Positions 4,432 to 9,408 of a DNA stretch of 30,257 nt are shown in pieces. How positions within the stretch are numbered: position 1 is the stretch's first letter; each line of letters starts with the position of its first letter. The notes under the pieces are model-generated. The model did no database searches, was not told where the DNA came from, and saw only the letters and a program-made list of their open reading frames with translations. The stretch is from Verrucomicrobiia bacterium (GTDB lineage Bacteria; Verrucomicrobiota; Verrucomicrobiia; Limisphaerales; UBA11358). Location of the stretch: the NCBI GenBank assembly GCA_030044395.1, contig JASHVW010000447.1:1-30257 (forward strand), in the 5' to 3' direction. Position numbers and translations under genes: made by a program.

Positions 4432-7400
4432 TTAGCGCGCCTTCCGAATTTCCTCGATCCAGTCATTTCCCGGCCGCGCATACGGGCGGAAAATCTCTGT
4501 GTAGCCTTCGCGATCGTTATAATAAAGCGCGCGATGCATGCCCAGTGAACCGGCATCCGGCGAATCAATCAGGCTCGCCGAGTCGCTCGCGCTCATCTGG
4601 AACAGCACCCGCATCTCAAATTCCGCCAATGTCTTGCGTCCGAGAAAACGGTTCACGTTGTTGTAAGTATCGCACGTGGCGAGCACATGGAGGCCGAGGG
4701 CGGGGCCGTCGCTGATGAGGCTTTGCAAAATCGCCGCGGGGTTTGGCGCGCCGGAATCGCCGGAGGAAAAGCTGAATTCATCCTCCTGCCGCAGCTTTTT
4801 GAAATTTTGCAATCCATTGATGAACAGGAAAATTTCCGGCCCGGATGTTTCATCGGCGCGGCCTTTCAATTCATCAGCCAACGCGGCCATCATCCCGGCG
4901 AGATTGGCATTATTGACATGGATGACCTCGGACGAAACTGCCCGGGTGATTCGTTCGAGAAAATCGCGGTCGGACGATTCCCGCGGTGTCGCGTCAAAAA
5001 CATAAGCCTTCGCATTCTTGGACAATTGCGCCGCCAGCGAGACCAGCGCCACGGCTAAAATCGTCAACGACCGCTCGTCGCTTTGGCCGACAATCAACAA
5101 ATTGCTGCCACTCTGCCGCTGGAAAACCGCTTCGGTGGGCCCTTTGATGGAGTTAGGCGCGCCCAGCCAGACACGCGGTTGGACGGGCACCTTCGCCGGG
5201 ACCGTTTGCAGCAAGTCGCGCAGAAGCAGATTTTCCCGCACATCCGCCGGCGCGCTGCCCTCGAACACAAATGGCCCGGGAAATTTTCTGTCATCAGCGC
5301 GTTGGCGTACCATGGCGAGGTACTGGTCGCGGACATCTTCCGCCAGCCAGACGGCCTGAAACGGACTGTTGCCTTCCAGCGAGCCCGAGGCGTCATTGTA
5401 AATGCCTTCGCCGGGGCGCGAGAGCAATCGTGGCGCGGGATTGTCCTGGTCCATGATCAGATAGGCGTCGGCCTCGTTGCATTGGAGGGCGATGCGGATG
5501 ACCATTTGTCCAATCGTCGCGCGGGCCAGGGTGTAAGCGCCGCCCAGCGTTTGCGAGCCGAGCAGCACGTGAATGCCGAAGGCGCGCCCCTGGCGCACAA
5601 TGCGATCGAGCAAAACCGCCGCGCCTTGCGATACGCGGTCTTCCTCGGTGAAAAATTCCTGGAACTCGTCAATCAGGAGCAGGCAGCGCGGCATTGCTTC
5701 CTTGCCGCCCGCGCGTTTGTAGCCGGCCAGGTCCTGCGCGCCGAGCTGGCGGAATAAATCGCCGCGGCGGCGCAATTCATCGTCCACGCGCTGCAACACG
5801 CTCAATCCAAAGGCGCGGTCACTTTCGATCGCCACCACTTTTGCGTGGGGCAATCTGCGGCTCGCATAGCATTTGAACTCGACGCCCTTTTTGAAGTCCA
5901 CGAGATAAAACTCCACCTGTTCCGGGCTGCACCAGAGGGCAAGGTTGGTGATGATGATATGGAACAACGTGGATTTGCCCGAGCCGGTTTTGCCGGCAAT
6001 CAGGGCATGCTGCCGCGTGCCTTTGCCAATTTCCAGATACTGAAATTTCGTCGCCCCTGAGCGGCCGATCGGCACCCGAAGTTCCTCCGTGGTTTCCTGG
6101 CTCCAAATCCTGCCGTCCGCCGGCGCGACCTGCTGGAAGGGCACTTCCACGCGCGTGGAATTCCTGCTGCTCTCGCCGACGTCATGCAAGAATTTCGTGG
6201 CGAATTCGGGTGGAGGAGGAGAATCGAGGACGATTTGAGAGCCGGACTCGCGCCAGTTGGCCAGTTGAAAGTTCTTCTCGACGCGGATCAGGCGGACGGA
6301 ATTCTTCCGCATTTCATCCGGAACAAAGTCGGCCGGCGGGGCATTGCGCTGGTCCCAATGCGCGAGCAGATAAACGCCGCAACGCGCGCCGTTGGCGGCG
6401 ATGTTGCGCAACCGCCTGGCCGCCGTGTCGGTGAAATTTACCGGGAAGGACGCAATGACCAGAAAATGATATTTCTCGGCGATACTGCCGGCTTGCGCGT
6501 TGTAATCGGCGATGGTGGGGTATTCGTTGCGCAAATACATTTGGATGACCTTTTCCATGTGCTCGTTCAATTCGGCCAGTTTTTCCTCGAATTGCGCCGA
6601 TTGCGTCCAGATGCGGCTGTTGATGTAGCCTTCCTCGTAATCCGCCAGGTGCATCAGCGCGGCAAAATTTTGACCGAGGCCCACCGGGTCAAAAATGGTA
6701 AAACTGACTTTGCCGGGTGGCGTAGCCGACAGCAGGCGAAAGATGATATCGTTGATGGCGGCGACCGCCTCGGTCTCGCCACCCTTGTTCGTCTCAAAGA
6801 GAATTGAGCCTTCCAGGGGAAAGGCGAGCGTCAGCGGGACCGAAACCGCCGGCACGGGAAGCGCCAGCCGGTTGTCCCTGGGCAAAACTTCGGCGAATTT
6901 CGCCACATCCAATTCCAATCGCCCGAATTTCGCCGCGTTCTTGAATTCCCGCGGTGGCGTCCAGTTCTTCCACGCGCAGGAGTCCCATGCGGGAAATGTC
7001 TTTTCCGTTTCGGAATTCGCCGAGCGGATTTTTTCGTAGATGGGTTGGATGGTATTTTTCCAATCCGTTTCCAGCGCCAGCCAGCCGGACTGGAACTCCG
7101 CTTCCAGTCTGGCTATGTTGGCCGCCTCTGCCTCGGAGAATTTCCTGGCTTCTTCGTTGGATTGCTCACGAATGCGGCGGAGATTTTCGGCGCGTTCTTT
7201 TTCCAGTCGCTCAAAGTGGCCGCGAAACTTTTTCTCGTTCCTTTGGAGGATTTTGGCAGCGCGCACATCCACTTCCACCGCGCTTTGCCCGGTTCGCGCC
7301 CGGCGGGTCGCCTGGCGCCATTCGAGGTTGATGTTGCGGATGGCGGTGTCAAATTCGGTTTTAATCCGCGCCTGTTCCTGCTGGTAATGCAATTCAGCCT

Positions 7401-8304
7401 TTTGCGCCGCGATGTCGAGAAACCGCCCGGCCTGGGTCAGGTTGCCGGCAATCAGCGTGGCGGCGGATTTGGCGCTCCGTCCGCCGAGAACGTGGATGAT
7501 TAAAACCGCCACAAACGCCACCACCGCGGCAATGACCGCCGGCTGCGGAACGGCATCAGCAGCCTTGAATCCGAAATGCTGAAGGGCCGCAACCCCCGCC
7601 GCAAAACCAGGAAGCAGCAAGCCCCATAGCCAGACCGGAAGATACCTGAAAATCTGCGGCAACAAATTCTGTTTGAACTTCGCCAAATCATCGCCCAATC
7701 GTTTCTCCAAATCCTCAAATTGGGCGAACAATTTGTCTTCGTCCGGCGACAGGTCCGGTTCCGGCCACTGGCGTTTTGGCGAAAGCAGCCGGCGGAAACC
7801 TCCATAACCGCGGAAGGCTGCCCGAACGGAATGGGTGAGGACATTCAGGCGCCCGGCGGCGTCGCCTGATTTTTGCCGGAAGCTTTCCACGGTCGCTCCC
7901 GCTTCCGCCAATGCCTCGTCACGGTTTTGTTCGGCTTCCCGCGATTTGATCTGGACCCTTTCCTTTAACTGGCCGCTCCGCGTGCCGATTTGCTCGGTCA
8001 ACTCCCTGCGGACAGCGGCCTGGGCGCGCGAAATCCGGGCCTTGCGATGGTCGGCAGCAGCTTCAAGCCGGGCCTTGGCCTCAGCGAAGCGGGTATCTTC
8101 GTCCACTGCGTTCTCGGCCAGTTTTCTGCTTCGCTCGATGGCGGCGTCATCGGCCAATTTGGTTGCGGCGGCGGTCCGCGCATTAAAGTCGGCATTCAGC
8201 CTTTCTTCGCGCGCGGCGAAATCGCGGACGGCATTTTTCAATGCCTCCAATAGGGCGAGCGTCTGACTGACTCCGGATTGGCTGTTCACGATGTTTGCTG
8301 GCAA
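4432..8304 (-). CDS. Membrane-anchored FtsK/SpoIIIE-family ATPase, EssC/EccC-like (type VII secretion-like)
   Basis: 1290 aa. Walker A GKTGSGKS (5971-5994), YLVDFK, Walker B LLLIDEFQ and the FtsK-type [15 protein letters not shown] motif. Two hydrophobic segments at about 7440-7650 lie between long helical regions, and degenerate ATPase-like repeats flank the active one. The TTG start is uncertain. Confidence 0.85.
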
Positions 8305-8345
8305 AGGAAACTAAACGAAAATTGGCCGGGACGCGAGTATGAAGG

Positions 8346-8558
8346 TTACTCGCAATCGCTCCTGATTTTCTTCAGCAATTCGTCCAGCTTTTCAATCACG
8401 CTGACCGCTTTTTCCACGCTGATAAAAAGCTCCTGCAAATATTTGCGCTCGAACTCAAGACTCTTTTCATCGCGCCAATAAGTTTTGGTGTCCTGCCATT
8501 TAAGCGACAGTTCCTTGGTGGCGGCGATGAGTTTGCTTTTGCTGGCAATCGCGCTCAT
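8346..8558 (-). CDS. Small WXG100-like helical protein (70 aa)
   Basis: This is the C-terminal part of track ORF 8346..8927, with real start ATG 8558. It has an AGGAG RBS and an ATGA overlap with the upstream stop. Sequence MSAIASKSKLIAATKELSLKWQDTKTYWRDEKSLEFERKYL... reads as helix-W-R-D-helix. Confidence 0.7.
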   Translation of the reverse strand: MSAIASKSKLIAATKELSLKWQDTKTYWRDEKSLEFERKYLQELFISVEKAVSVIEKLDELLKKIRSDCE

Positions 8559-9055
8559 GGGGCTTTCTCCTGCGGCCTGGGGGCAACGACGCCGGTGTAG
8601 GCGTCGAGCGTCTGGATGATTTGCGTGAGCAAAGCGACGGCGGCCGGAACGTCGGCTGTCAGGAAGCCGTGCAACTGTTCGATTTCCTTCAGGAGTGGAG
8701 CGGAGCGGTTGTCCAGTTCGCGGTCCCAACGCTTGAGCAATTTCAACTTGTCCTCGGCCTCCTGGACCGACTGGCTGGCGCGTCGGACGGCCATTTGCAG
8801 GAGCGATGTCGTTTCCTGAAACTCCGACAGCCGGGCGGTGAACAATTCCTGCCGCGCCTGTTCCAGCTTTTTGTTTCGCGCGCGCAATTGGGCCTCCCAG
8901 AAATGCCGCTGCTCGTTTTGCAGCCACAGCCGCGTGCGGACGACTTCGCCGGAGACTTCCTCAAGGGCGGGGCGCGCCTGGCTCGTGAACACAATCAGCG
9001 CGGCGCGAAACAATTCAATCGCTTCGACGGACGTGATTTGGGCCTGCGTTGCCAT
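8555..9055 (-). CDS. Coiled-coil protein (166 aa) in the WXG100/FtsK operon
   Basis: All-helical, charged heptad pattern, GGAGG RBS upstream, and translationally coupled to the next gene. Confidence 0.75.
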   Translation of the reverse strand: MATQAQITSVEAIELFRAALIVFTSQARPALEEVSGEVVRTRLWLQNEQRHFWEAQLRARNKKLEQARQELFTARLSEFQETTSLLQMAVRRASQSVQEAEDKLKLLKRWDRELDNRSAPLLKEIEQLHGFLTADVPAAVALLTQIIQTLDAYTGVVAPRPQEKAP

Positions 9056-9135
9056 GGTGATTTATTCCCTCCACGGACCTTTCCTTTCCGCGTCGCGAGT
9101 CCGCTGGGCGTTGGGCGGAGGGGAGGGAGAGGAGT

Positions 9136-9408
9136 TCATCGTTGCCGCAAGTAATCTTCAATGCGCTGCGCCTTGCGCAACAGATACGGCGTGTGTTCTT
9201 TGGAAACTTCGATGAATTTCTTCAGTGCTTTCATTGCCGTCTTGAATTCCTCGGAGAATTTTTCGTGTTCCTGGTCCTGCCAGGTGTCGGCCAGGGAGCC
9301 AAACCGCGCCTGCAACAGAATCAGCCGGTTCTCGAGGTCCGTGTTGAACCGCTGCAATTCGTCGGCGAACCGCCGGACTTTCTCCGGGTCCATTATTGCT
9401 TGTGCCAT
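9136..9408 (-). CDS. WXG100-family (ESAT-6/EsxA-like) protein
   Basis: 90 aa. N-terminus MAQAIMDPEKVRRFADEL resembles the 'IxVdPeeL' start of WXG100 proteins, and a central LADTWQDQEHEKF turn separates two amphipathic helices. Confidence 0.8.
   Translation of the reverse strand: MAQAIMDPEKVRRFADELQRFNTDLENRLILLQARFGSLADTWQDQEHEKFSEEFKTAMKALKKFIEVSKEHTPYLLRKAQRIEDYLRQR

Follow-up and report, generated by a model that had tools for sequence, protein, structure and literature searches.

A probably self-contained four-gene module related to the type VII secretion core in Verrucomicrobiota

Four adjacent genes in the 30,257-nucleotide stretch of DNA analyzed here (the window) are best explained as one copy of a self-contained, type VII secretion system (T7SS)-related module of Verrucomicrobiota, which exports or inserts its own three small helical proteins (A, B and C), and we assign this reading a probability of about 55%. 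Homology of the module to the T7SS core, in the form of a "solo WXG" gene with a three-domain YueA-like ATPase, is very probable, and the chance that proteins are really exported or inserted at the inner membrane is roughly even. As the likeliest function, we propose that ATP powers the export, or the membrane insertion, of a helical complex of A, B and C at the inner membrane.

The first-pass annotation of the window had reported four co-oriented genes for proteins of 90, 166, 70 and 1290 aa, and all four were recovered where it had placed them, on the minus strand, forming a tightly packed cassette at positions 4432-9408 (Table 1). The start codon of gene C overlaps the stop codon of gene B (ATGA), and the reading frame of C is nested within a longer, spurious 193-aa ORF. 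The ATPase comprises 1290 aa when read from a TTG codon; the identical database protein has 1285 aa and starts from a GTG five codons downstream. The flanking genes encode a GH95 glycosidase, NUDIX, MFS, TPR, Rrf2 and LysR proteins, squalene-hopene cyclase, an HtrA-like protease, a MacAB-type exporter and transketolase. Annotation of these flanks revealed neither T7SS accessory genes nor toxin or immunity genes, in agreement with the first reading. The source genome is a peat/soil Verrucomicrobiota MAG.

Table 1. Positions of the cassette genes and of ATPase regions in the window (A4, alignment of ATPase family members)
Feature	Positions	Strand	Basis
Gene A, WXG100-family protein	9136-9408	-	90 aa; Pfam WXG100 match
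Gene B, predicted long antiparallel helical hairpin	8555-9055	-	166 aa; AlphaFold model
Gene C, predicted WXG100-like mini hairpin	8346-8558	-	70 aa; AlphaFold model
ATPase gene, predicted membrane-anchored, EssC/EccC-like	4432-8304	-	1290 aa from TTG; Pfam FtsK_SpoIIIE
ATPase 1-215, putative cytoplasmic helical/coiled-coil N-terminal region	7660-8304	-	Composition and A4; sequence poorly conserved
ATPase ~222-276, two predicted TM helices (~222-242, 255-276), ~12-residue loop	7477-7641	-	Kyte-Doolittle windows 1.6-2.9
ATPase ~280-430, putative second helical/coiled-coil (stalk-like) region	7015-7467	-	Composition and A4
ATPase ~480-700, strongly conserved domain lacking Walker motifs	6205-6867	-	Many invariant A4 columns
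ATPase 735-995, predicted single catalytically competent P-loop domain	5320-6102	-	Walker A and B; aligns to EccC D1
Walker A G771-S778, GKTGSGKS	5971-5994	-	Invariant in A4; only Walker A in ATPase
Walker B D879-E880, DEFQE	within 5656-5682	-	Invariant in A4
Pfam FtsK_SpoIIIE match	5548-6087	-	104 bits; ATPase active domain
ATPase ~1045-1290, putative degenerate C-terminal P-loop-like domain	4435-5172	-	No Walker A lysine; conserved in A4

Protein A is a genuine member of the WXG100 family and belongs to its HP0062 (W-x-D) type. It scored 38.9 bits against the Pfam WXG100 profile (gathering cut-off 27.3), and its family profile matched best, over the full length, the Helicobacter pylori protein HP0062 in the PDB (3FX7/2GTS, E 2e-13), followed by EsxB and EsxA. 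The hairpin turn carries W43-Q-D45 and the C-terminus a conserved IE(E/D)YLxQR motif, with W43, D45, Y86 and L87 invariant in the family. A represents the sole WXG100 match in the genome of the window and in five near-complete carriers, and is still present in genomes where it is unlinked from the ATPase. The prediction that automatic pipelines would label the locus "FtsK plus hypotheticals" was not borne out, since databases already call A "WXG100 family type VII secretion target" or "YukE" and the ATPase "FtsK/SpoIIIE domain-containing protein".

A WXG100-type hairpin had been proposed for both A and C. At the level of the WXG100 profile this was confirmed for A, but C remained below the threshold and B matched no Pfam family; for C, the proposed fold was recovered in the AlphaFold model (pLDDT 94.8). 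C is predicted to form a shorter helix-turn-helix hairpin (helices 3-27 and 31-69) resembling A in shape and likewise carrying a W-x-D motif (W28-R29-D30) at the turn, so that the glycine of W-x-G is substituted in both proteins. The top Foldseek matches of C in the PDB were Esx proteins (TM 0.75-0.84, with E-values that are not significant), and WXG100 and WXG100_2 were the commonest sub-threshold Pfam matches among 66 C members (best E 9e-4 and 6e-5). The C family has invariant W21, W28, D30 and F36 and a conserved C-terminal (V/I)RxDCE motif; profile comparison of A with C detected no significant homology.

Protein B is modelled as a single helical hairpin ~110 Å long (pLDDT 90.1; helices 2-77 and 80-156, ~77 residues per helix) with a probably disordered tail, which is variable and rich in Pro, Ser and Thr. 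It has no sequence match in Pfam, NCBIfam or the PDB, and Foldseek against the PDB returned generic coiled coils only. The B family includes 2821 clusters (50% identity) at E<=1e-3 and 320 at E<=1e-30, with Y153 invariant. Its AFDB cluster neighbours (24-38% identity) include proteins with the same hairpin followed by an extra C-terminal domain with an Imm33-like name, and a weaker AFDB match is an LHH-nuclease protein. By analogy, this arrangement of a B-like hairpin with a C-terminal domain recalls the LXG-type carrier domains.

The ATPase appears to be built from a coiled coil, two TM helices, a second coiled coil and three P-loop domains, with activity confined to the middle one. The coiled-coil assignment of its N-terminal region is suggested by composition, and related TM-less ATPases contain a coiled coil of at least 200 aa (PMC11090510). 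The TM hairpin is bordered by basic residues on either end and probably serves as a two-helix membrane anchor with N-in/C-in topology. At this position, 10/10 close family members show hydrophobic TM-like segments (one window or two merged ones), and distant ATPases of the TerY-P type have none there. The conserved domain at ~480-700, with invariant DPVGLG, EKVIQxYLR and RCG sequences, is proposed to correspond to the EccC DUF, a degenerate first P-loop domain; its ESM-Atlas neighbours include FtsK_SpoIIIE clusters, which we regard as a lead only. The C-terminal domain was weakly matched by the active-domain HMM (E 1e-5 to 6e-9) in seven of ten members, including that of the window.

Sequence comparisons place the ATPase on the EccC/EssC side of the FtsK superfamily. 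Its best NCBIfam models are EccCa, EccCb and EssC, all scoring far below the curated cut-offs. In PDB searches EccC (4NH0, 1e-30), EccC5 (2e-27) and YukB (9e-21) outperformed FtsK (3e-9) by 12-20 orders of magnitude, and the EccC/EssC D1 domain is the nearest to the active domain among solved structures. About 100 full-length homologue clusters share 53-87% identity with the ATPase, and those with a named source are all from Verrucomicrobiota MAGs. In a small tree of active domains, the cassette ATPases form a supported clade (97/99) apart from the EccC-like and FtsK clades, nested in a broader, likewise supported clade (96/94) whose ATPases are linked to W-x-D WXG genes, and group with ATPases that lack TM helices and come from TerY-P-type loci.

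The four genes stay linked, with no further conserved neighbour. The order A-B-C-ATPase is kept in 69 of the 73 related loci with enough upstream DNA (66 of them compact), and no other gene family is common to more than 4 of 80 loci. This conservation is far beyond chance, given the constant order and a length of exactly 90 aa for A in 70/70 recovered copies. Searches for EccB, YukD (EccD/EsaB), YukC (EssB), EssA and the EsaA N-terminus produced no match in the MAG or in four carriers of 98-99% completeness, while the positive controls gave a signal; EccE was likewise without a match in these genomes, but its control was silent. The first-pass interpretation is partly supported: the picture of a stripped-down T7SS-related module, combining WXG100 protein A with an EccC/EssC-like ATPase and no conventional membrane parts in these searches, held up, as did the diderm PVC host. 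The roles it suggested, periplasmic export, membrane remodelling or defence, are conjectural. The related loci are nearly all labelled Verrucomicrobiota, and Omp85/BamA is encoded in 5/5 genomes (the MAG and the four carriers), indicating diderm hosts.

FtsK-superfamily ATPases assemble as hexamers, and by analogy the cassette ATPase would form a hexamer at the inner membrane, with its 12 TM helices as the sole membrane conduit. A, B and C would associate into one or more helical-bundle complexes, and the ATPase would recognize their strictly conserved C-terminal ends (...EEYLxQR in A, ...LxAYA in B and ...RxDCE in C). ATP hydrolysis in the middle domain would then drive the small proteins into or across the cytoplasmic membrane toward the periplasm of the diderm cell. 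In ESX-5, the central pore is made in part by the TM helices of EccC5 and is scaffolded by EccB and EccD (PMC8232910). Counted against export is the fact that all characterized T7SSs require further membrane proteins, and the opening of a bare 12-helix ring may be too narrow to pass a four-helix bundle in its folded state. With a periplasmic loop of only ~12 residues and no linked outer-membrane component, the model does not account for true secretion to the outside. The replaced W-x-G glycine in A and C, the sub-cut-off EccC/EssC scores and the lack of significant A-C homology also count against the export reading.

A conflict or defence module directed at invading elements or at the membrane of its own producer, with no cargo export, has about one chance in four. 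Here, a trigger such as phage would cause the ATPase to load WXG100-type proteins into the inner membrane, producing pores or depolarization (abortive infection), or the ATPase would remodel a coiled-coil complex controlling another effector. Consistent with this, the closest ATPase relatives (L032-L034), which group with the cassette ATPases in the tree, adjoin vWA (TerY), PP2C and Ser/Thr kinase genes. EssC-like/WXG100 operons have been located within Type III-A CoCoNuT defence loci (PMC11090510) and placed with the TerY-P triad (PMC4978471), and according to a passage in PMC7810871 some WXG100 proteins (EsxE/EsxF) form membrane channels. The Imm33-like or LHH domains fused to B-like hairpins point the same way, as do the variable flanks and the patchy distribution (17 of the 401 genomes sampled from the phylum), both usual in accessory or defence genes. 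Since the nearest relatives are TM-less and lie in TerY-P/CoCoNuT-type conflict loci, the ancestral job need not have been membrane transport. However, no recognizable defence island surrounds the cassette here, where the flanks are housekeeping, or in the related loci; no nuclease, toxin, vWA, kinase or phosphatase genes are linked to it in either; and PADLOC gave generic P-loop matches only (SspH, mad8, HerA). The TM-bearing family has lost the nuclease fusion and TerY-P neighbours, exactly the features tying its relatives to conflict systems.

It is rather improbable that the ATPase is a membrane-tethered, cytoplasmic unfoldase or disassemblase of A/B/C coiled-coil assemblies, for example a membrane-associated scaffold, without translocation. 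A single active domain among three and a TM hairpin set between long coiled coils with no periplasmic domain would suit such remodelling, and the TM-less relatives must act in the cytoplasm (PMC11090510). Nevertheless, the EccC/EssC clade members that are known act as translocases, the TM hairpin is kept throughout the cassette family, and transport is favoured by the strict pairing with proteins of the WXG100 fold, which serve as secretion substrates or co-substrates in every tested case (PMC10765036). An FtsK/TraB-like ATPase that pumps DNA for a mobile element (in conjugation or segregation), with small helical accessory factors, suggested by the FtsK_SpoIIIE family, the variable contexts and the term "mobile" used for this class (PMC3482391), is very unlikely, because the genome has a true FtsK gene at another site (229 bits), EccC/EssC scores are far above FtsK with the ATPase outside the FtsK clade, integrase, relaxase, replication or partition genes are not common to the 80 loci, and no DNA-binding (FtsK gamma-type) domain was among the Pfam matches of the ATPase.

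Among known systems, one parallel is an analogy of shape and gene order only: passages in PMC10801868 and PMC9600955 describe T7SSb LXG toxins with Lap factors, in which a long helical protein lies beside small helical partners and an EssC-type ATPase, and remote B relatives also bear extra C-terminal domains, but B has no LXG Pfam match or toxin domain and the cassette no immunity gene. With T7SSa (ESX) and T7SSb (Ess/Yuk) the cassette shares the universal pair of a WXG100 protein and a membrane EccC/EssC-type ATPase (PMC10765036), the predicted ATPase order of two TM helices, stalk, degenerate domain and active D1-like domain, and small substrates without signal peptides. In contrast to these systems, no EccB, EccD, EccE, MycP, EsaA, EssA, EssB or EsaB was found with it, and it has three ATPase-like domains (one active) instead of four, an N-terminal coiled coil in place of FHA domains, W-x-D in place of W-x-G, no linked LXG, PE/PPE or toxin-immunity genes, and a diderm host with a classical outer membrane.

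The HP0062/HP0066 "WXG100 secretion system" locus of H. pylori is similar in that HP0062 (3FX7, 2GTS) matches A in size and helical hairpin, has W-R-D in place of W-x-G, and is clustered with an FtsK/SpoIIIE-domain protein in a Gram-negative host (PMC3397514, PMC4978471). The comparison covered HP0062 and A; the locus belongs to another phylum, and its listed neighbours include a DnaK homologue and a nuclease of the HNH/EndoVII type (PMC4978471). Versions of the solo WXG module embedded in CoCoNuT and TerY-P loci differ in having no TM helices, in a fusion of coiled coil and nuclease and in a DNA-mimic-like gene placed between vWA genes (PMC11090510), whereas the cassette has a two-helix anchor, a toxin-less 166-aa B and no neighbouring vWA, kinase or phosphatase genes.

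The first-pass annotation did not recognize the module as characterized, but its kind was noted by comparative genomics in 2012, so that the interpretation is only partly new. We found no description of the fixed A-B-C-ATPase layout or of the B and C families in the literature examined. Modules of the same kind are discussed in PMC11090510, PMC4978471 and PMC10765036, and a passage of the first, citing Anantharaman 2012 (a study also cited in PMC4978471), sees in this class a secretion system that probably stands alone. Zhang et al. 2012 (PMC3482391, Table 1 footnote 6) list verrucomicrobia among the lineages with "solo WXG" genes and a YueA-like ATPase, and describe "mobile versions of T7SS" whose YueA-like ATPase has three HerA/FtsK domains with a single active one in the middle. 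The cassette resembles these solo WXG modules in phylum, in a WXG100 gene adjoining an EssC/YueA-like ATPase with three P-loop-type domains (the central one alone active) and a long N-terminal coiled coil, in a second WXG100-like protein without W-x-G, and in its stand-alone occurrence in variable contexts.

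The cassette consists of four minus-strand genes encoding three small helical proteins (A, B and C) and a large FtsK-like ATPase, an arrangement already seen in the first-pass annotation and confirmed here. Gene C is masked in a mechanical ORF list by a spurious 193-aa frame, and the identical ATPase in the protein collection is 1285 aa long with a GTG start five codons later. The window represents the entire 30-kb contig from a bin of 2.75 Mb (447 contigs, 69% complete), and the locus is present in DNA runs from peat and soil metagenomes, with no RNA runs among those listed. 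A promoter and terminator scan (4000-9900) gave counts equal to the shuffled expectation and is therefore uninformative on operon boundaries.

Genes of the cassette and regions of the ATPase (genes in nucleotide positions of the window, regions in residues)
Feature	Position	Strand	Remarks
Gene A	9136-9408	-	90 aa; followed by an 80-nt spacer with GGAGGG
Gene B	8555-9055	-	166 aa
Gene C	8346-8558	-	70 aa; coupled to B by ATGA (ATG of C on TGA of B)
ATPase gene	4432-8304	-	1290 aa from TTG; 41 nt downstream of C
ATPase, N-terminal region	1-215		helical as judged from composition; N-terminus taken as coiled coil
ATPase, TM hairpin	~222-242 and 255-276		two hydrophobic helices, 12-residue loop between them, basic residues flanking both ends
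ATPase, second helical region	~280-430
ATPase, first ATPase-like domain	~480-700		strongly conserved, without Walker motifs
ATPase, active domain	735-995		sole active P-loop domain; GKTGSGKS at 771, DEFQE at 879-883
ATPase, C-terminal domain	~1045-1290		degenerate, P-loop-like

Protein A matches the WXG100 family (PF06013) with 38.9 bits against a gathering cut-off of 27.3 over residues 6-85. The same above-cut-off match was found in all five carrier genomes searched, A is the sole WXG100 match in each of five near-complete carriers, and existing pipelines name it 'WXG100 family type VII secretion target' or 'YukE'. The A-family profile aligned over the full length with the solved structures of HP0062, EsxB, EsxA and SAG1039 (E 2e-13 to 5e-5), the best relative being Helicobacter pylori HP0062 (3FX7, 2GTS; E 2e-13) followed by EsxB and EsxA of Bacillota. 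From these solved homologues, A is predicted to form a helix-turn-helix hairpin of the ~100-residue class. The W-x-G motif at the turn is absent from both A and C, which have W43-Q-D45 and W28-R-D30, respectively, with the W and D residues invariant in the 66-member alignments. HP0062 likewise has a W-x-D turn (W-R-D) rather than W-x-G and an FtsK/SpoIIIE neighbour (PMC3397514), and together with HP0066 it represents a pair of conserved paralogues in H. pylori (PMC4978471). Protein A is 90 aa long in 70 of 70 copies and has the fixed C-terminus IE(E/D)YLxQR. Comparisons of A with B and with the ATPase N-terminus were not significant, leaving the shared N-terminal helix pattern proposed in the first-pass annotation without statistical support.

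Protein C gave no significant sequence match. AlphaFold (66-sequence alignment) predicted a hairpin with helices 3-27 and 31-69 (pLDDT 94.8), which places W28-R29-D30 exactly at the turn. In a Foldseek search of the PDB, Esx proteins were the top matches to C (TM 0.75-0.84) with non-significant E-values (E>1), as expected for a 70-residue hairpin. The commonest weak Pfam matches across the C family are WXG100 and WXG100_2, with five of the 66 members matching WXG100 below threshold (best E 9e-4). Because the hhalign comparison of the A and C families was weak (probability 14-21%), the WXG-like call for C rests on fold and turn motif; C appears WXG100-like by predicted shape and motif position, a resemblance short of demonstrated homology. 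Most copies are 70 aa long, and the C-terminus is fixed as (V/I)RxDCE.

The model of protein B is one long hairpin of two antiparallel helices (2-77 and 80-156, pLDDT 90), followed by a Pro/Ser/Thr-rich tail of variable length. Its family comprises 2821 clusters at 50% identity (E<=1e-3). No relative of B was found in Pfam, NCBIfam or the PDB, where sequence search and Foldseek returned only generic coiled coils, and its comparison with the 436-aa coiled-coil protein of the related TerY-P-type locus L032 was not significant. Remote B relatives in AlphaFold DB clusters (24-38% identity) include a protein with the same hairpin followed by an Imm33-like domain (28% identity), and an LHH nuclease domain is present in a second, weaker structural match (clusters A0A7X7J0G5 and A0A7C3QYX5). 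Both hint that proteins resembling polymorphic toxins can use the B fold as a carrier or adaptor.

The ATPase has two TM helices followed by tandem FtsK-like domains (dead, active, dead) and is nearer to EccC/EssC than to FtsK. In the PDB it matched EccC from Thermomonospora curvata (1e-30), EccC5 (2e-27), YukB (9e-21) and FtsK (3e-9), and the genome has an ordinary FtsK of its own at another locus. The top three NCBIfam models were EccCa, EccCb and EssC, all with scores far below the curated cut-offs (115.5 vs 509, 90.8 vs 347 and 87.4 vs 778 bits, respectively). The active domain aligns with EccC D1; it was the only domain aligned by hhalign between the ATPase family and an actinobacterial EccC, so that a correspondence of the two degenerate domains to DUF or D2 is only putative, and an ESM-Atlas search with residues 440-730 provided leads only. 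The basic residues at both ends of the TM hairpin indicate an N-in/C-in orientation.

About 100 full-length homologue clusters of the ATPase were found (53-87% identity), and those with a named source are Verrucomicrobiota MAGs. An even sample of 401 genomes of this phylum contained 17 with a match, about a dozen of them full-length and scattered over families, and A-type proteins form 6784 clusters at 90% identity. Species-representative genomes hold at least 558 related stretches; the best 80 of these are nearly all labelled Verrucomicrobiota, with labels including Limisphaerales, Pedosphaera, Chthoniobacterales, Prosthecobacter, Akkermansiaceae, Roseibacillus, Methylacidiphilales and Spartobacteria. 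The order A-B-C directly before the ATPase was observed in 69 of the 73 loci with enough upstream DNA (compact in 66), establishing the co-conservation on which the reading of the four genes as one module depended. No further gene family is common to more than four of the 80 loci, and in nine further loci the four cassette genes are all that the wide flanks have in common.

In two genomes of one genus, the cassette is split and A is retained, with the genes for A and the full-length, TM-bearing ATPase on different contigs: C20:481-750 and C21:54728-57709 in G289, and C193:2472-2741 and C36:7384-10650 in G169. Locus L031, from a third genome of the same family, has the compact four-gene form. 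In a set of irregular loci (L039:75-5940, L040:4140-6000, L070:3065-3965 and L059:5335-6000; also L038, L048 and L065), a few have inserts of 0.7-5.9 kb between cassette genes and others are without A and/or B upstream of the ATPase; the L040 insert contains an oppositely oriented 388-aa membrane-like ORF. The loci with inserts or lost A/B look like rearranged or decaying copies. ATPases 49-70% identical to that of the window also occur under odd labels, namely Aquilonibacter (L038), Sulfopaludibacter (L045), Acidiferrales (L047), Bifidobacterium (L069), Acidoferrum (L076), Omnitrophota (L082), Klebsiella (L084), Victivallales (L086), Bacteroidetes (L092) and Bifidobacteriaceae (L106). Judged from their titles, these records are probably mislabelled MAGs, and their labels were not accepted as evidence for occurrence outside Verrucomicrobiota.

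The neighbours of the cassette in the window are housekeeping genes. A squalene-hopene cyclase gene (9142-11625, plus strand; Pfam 466 and 338 bits) is divergent from gene A, and its ORF as listed (827 aa) is over-extended at the 5' end, overlapping gene A on the opposite strand. Genes for an HtrA-like trypsin/PDZ protease and an Rrf2-family regulator lie at 12492-14400 (minus strand). A MacAB-like tripartite exporter operon (15776-20515, plus strand), which encodes an HlyD-family adaptor, an ABC ATPase and two MacB/FtsX-type permeases, lies 6 kb from the cassette and is not conserved beside it in other genomes.

Knowledge of T7SS comes almost wholly from Actinomycetota and Bacillota, and to our knowledge the motor ATPase there never acts without several membrane proteins specific to the lineage. 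In the cassette, the two universal T7SS parts (WXG100 and an EccC/EssC-type ATPase) are accompanied by just two small helical proteins. Searches for EccB, EccD and EccE (PF05108, PF08817, PF11203) and for EssB/YukC, EsaB/YukD, EssA and the EsaA N-terminus (PF10140, PF08817, PF10661, TIGR03929) gave no matches in this bin (69% complete) and four carriers of 98-99% completeness, the EccE result being uninformative because its control was silent. Positive controls for EccB and YukD were positive, as was the T7SSb set in Bacillus subtilis. The lack of further T7SS parts, noted beside the module in the first-pass annotation, extends to these five genomes for EccB, YukD, YukC, EssA and the EsaA N-terminus. 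All five, this bin included, encode Omp85/BamA, which identifies diderm cells; the cassette hosts have a classical outer membrane and no detectable accessory component.

The nearest relatives of the ATPase occur in a TerY-P/CoCoNuT context, which suggests a conflict or membrane-acting role as the main alternative to export. The related loci L032 (3700-13000), L033 (5270-11375) and L034 (1980-12870) encode TM-less EssC-like ATPases of 1059-1269 aa, with two adjacent FtsK-like ATPase genes in L034. These genes adjoin those for vWA (TerY-like), PP2C and Ser/Thr kinase proteins, corresponding to the TerY-P-type context of the literature, and a ~440-aa coiled-coil protein takes the place of B. The three loci belong to a group of more distant ATPases from this phylum (23-32% identity), which likewise follow W-x-D-type WXG100 genes and have no TM helices. 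The window family itself stands among housekeeping genes without TerY-P/CoCoNuT neighbours, which speaks against a conflict role: vWA (TerY), PP2C, Ser/Thr kinase and coiled-coil-nuclease fusion genes were seen only in L032-L034, with none in the window flanks and none common to the 80 loci. The TM hairpin is conserved in the window family and absent in the related loci L032, L033, L035 and L036. In a maximum-likelihood tree of active domains (28 sequences, midpoint root, Bacillota EssC not included), the TM-bearing family forms a supported clade (97/99). It is nested in a larger group of WXG-linked ATPases, also supported (96/94), whereas FtsK and the actinobacterial EccC-like sequences fall into clades of their own. 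PADLOC returned only SspH, mad8 and HerA, which are generic P-loop matches and were rejected as evidence for a known defence system.

The analysis shows the folds, domain order, membrane anchor, single active site, strict four-gene linkage and absence of known partners; a mechanism of export is inferred. The ATPase would form a hexamer, as FtsK-superfamily ATPases do, and its 12 TM helices may build a membrane conduit. In ESX-5, the central pore receives EccC5 TM helices from six protomers, with EccB and EccD as the scaffold (PMC8232910). A, B and C may assemble into helical bundles; as a geometric remark rather than a result, the 77-residue helices of B are about as long as those of A (~40 residues) and C (25-39) combined. 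The ATPase would recognize the fixed C-termini of the A/B/C complexes and drive these complexes into or across the inner membrane. As the periplasmic loop has 12 residues and no outer-membrane part is linked, they would end up in the periplasm or in the membrane. In its full form, this export reading is tentative, and we give it roughly one chance in four: a single EssC-like hexamer would be a complete inner-membrane protein-conducting machine, a minimal T7SS without partners of the EccB/D/E or EssA/B/EsaA type, exporting an A/B/C rod to the periplasm of a classical diderm, where an envelope structure would be built or served by the WXG-like proteins and the ~110 Å hairpin of B (e.g. a periplasm-spanning or outer-membrane-active assembly).

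If the cassette exports, it would show the capacity of the minimal T7SS core alone and offer a simple system in which to study how substrates are recognized and pores form. Without export, the cassette would show the use of a T7SS core outside secretion, e.g. in conflict systems. Either answer bears on a question left open in a 2023 review, namely whether the WXG100/FtsK pairs of Gram-negative bacteria act as secretion systems, and the role of such systems in diderm bacteria is a testable question already on record.

In its domains and WXG adjacency, the cassette fits the 'solo WXG + three-domain, middle-active YueA-like ATPase' class among the 'mobile versions of T7SS' (Zhang et al. 2012). 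The first-pass reading of a minimal T7SS-like module was right in kind but overstated the novelty; the class is already known computationally. In their passage on it, Bell et al. 2024 (PMC11090510) cite Anantharaman et al. 2012. No experiment on ATPase-dependent WXG100 secretion is on record for the class (PMC10765036). To judge from title and abstract, the 2024 survey of T7SS variants in PMC11217815 is limited to Gram-positive bacteria, and diderm lineages did not come up in a term search of its text. The cassette adds one more member to a class known from computation, and we claim no new kind of system. To this known class our analysis adds the fixed A-B-C-ATPase layout, the conserved TM hairpin, the W-x-D motif in both hairpins, the B and C families, and a lack of accessory parts that extends to near-complete genomes.

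Compared with EccC/EssC, which contain a DUF and D1-D3 with an N-terminal FHA in EssC, the ATPase has three ATPase-like regions with one Walker A and no FHA match. The EssC homologues in CoCoNuT loci have three ATPase domains, of which the central one alone is active, preceded by an N-terminal coiled coil without TM helices, and their loci encode a pair of WXG100 proteins, one of them lacking WxG, along with a coiled-coil-nuclease fusion (PMC11090510). These CoCoNuT-linked members start with a ~200-residue coiled coil and lack TM helices; the window ATPase joins a ~215-aa N-terminus, helical as judged from composition, to a conserved TM hairpin.
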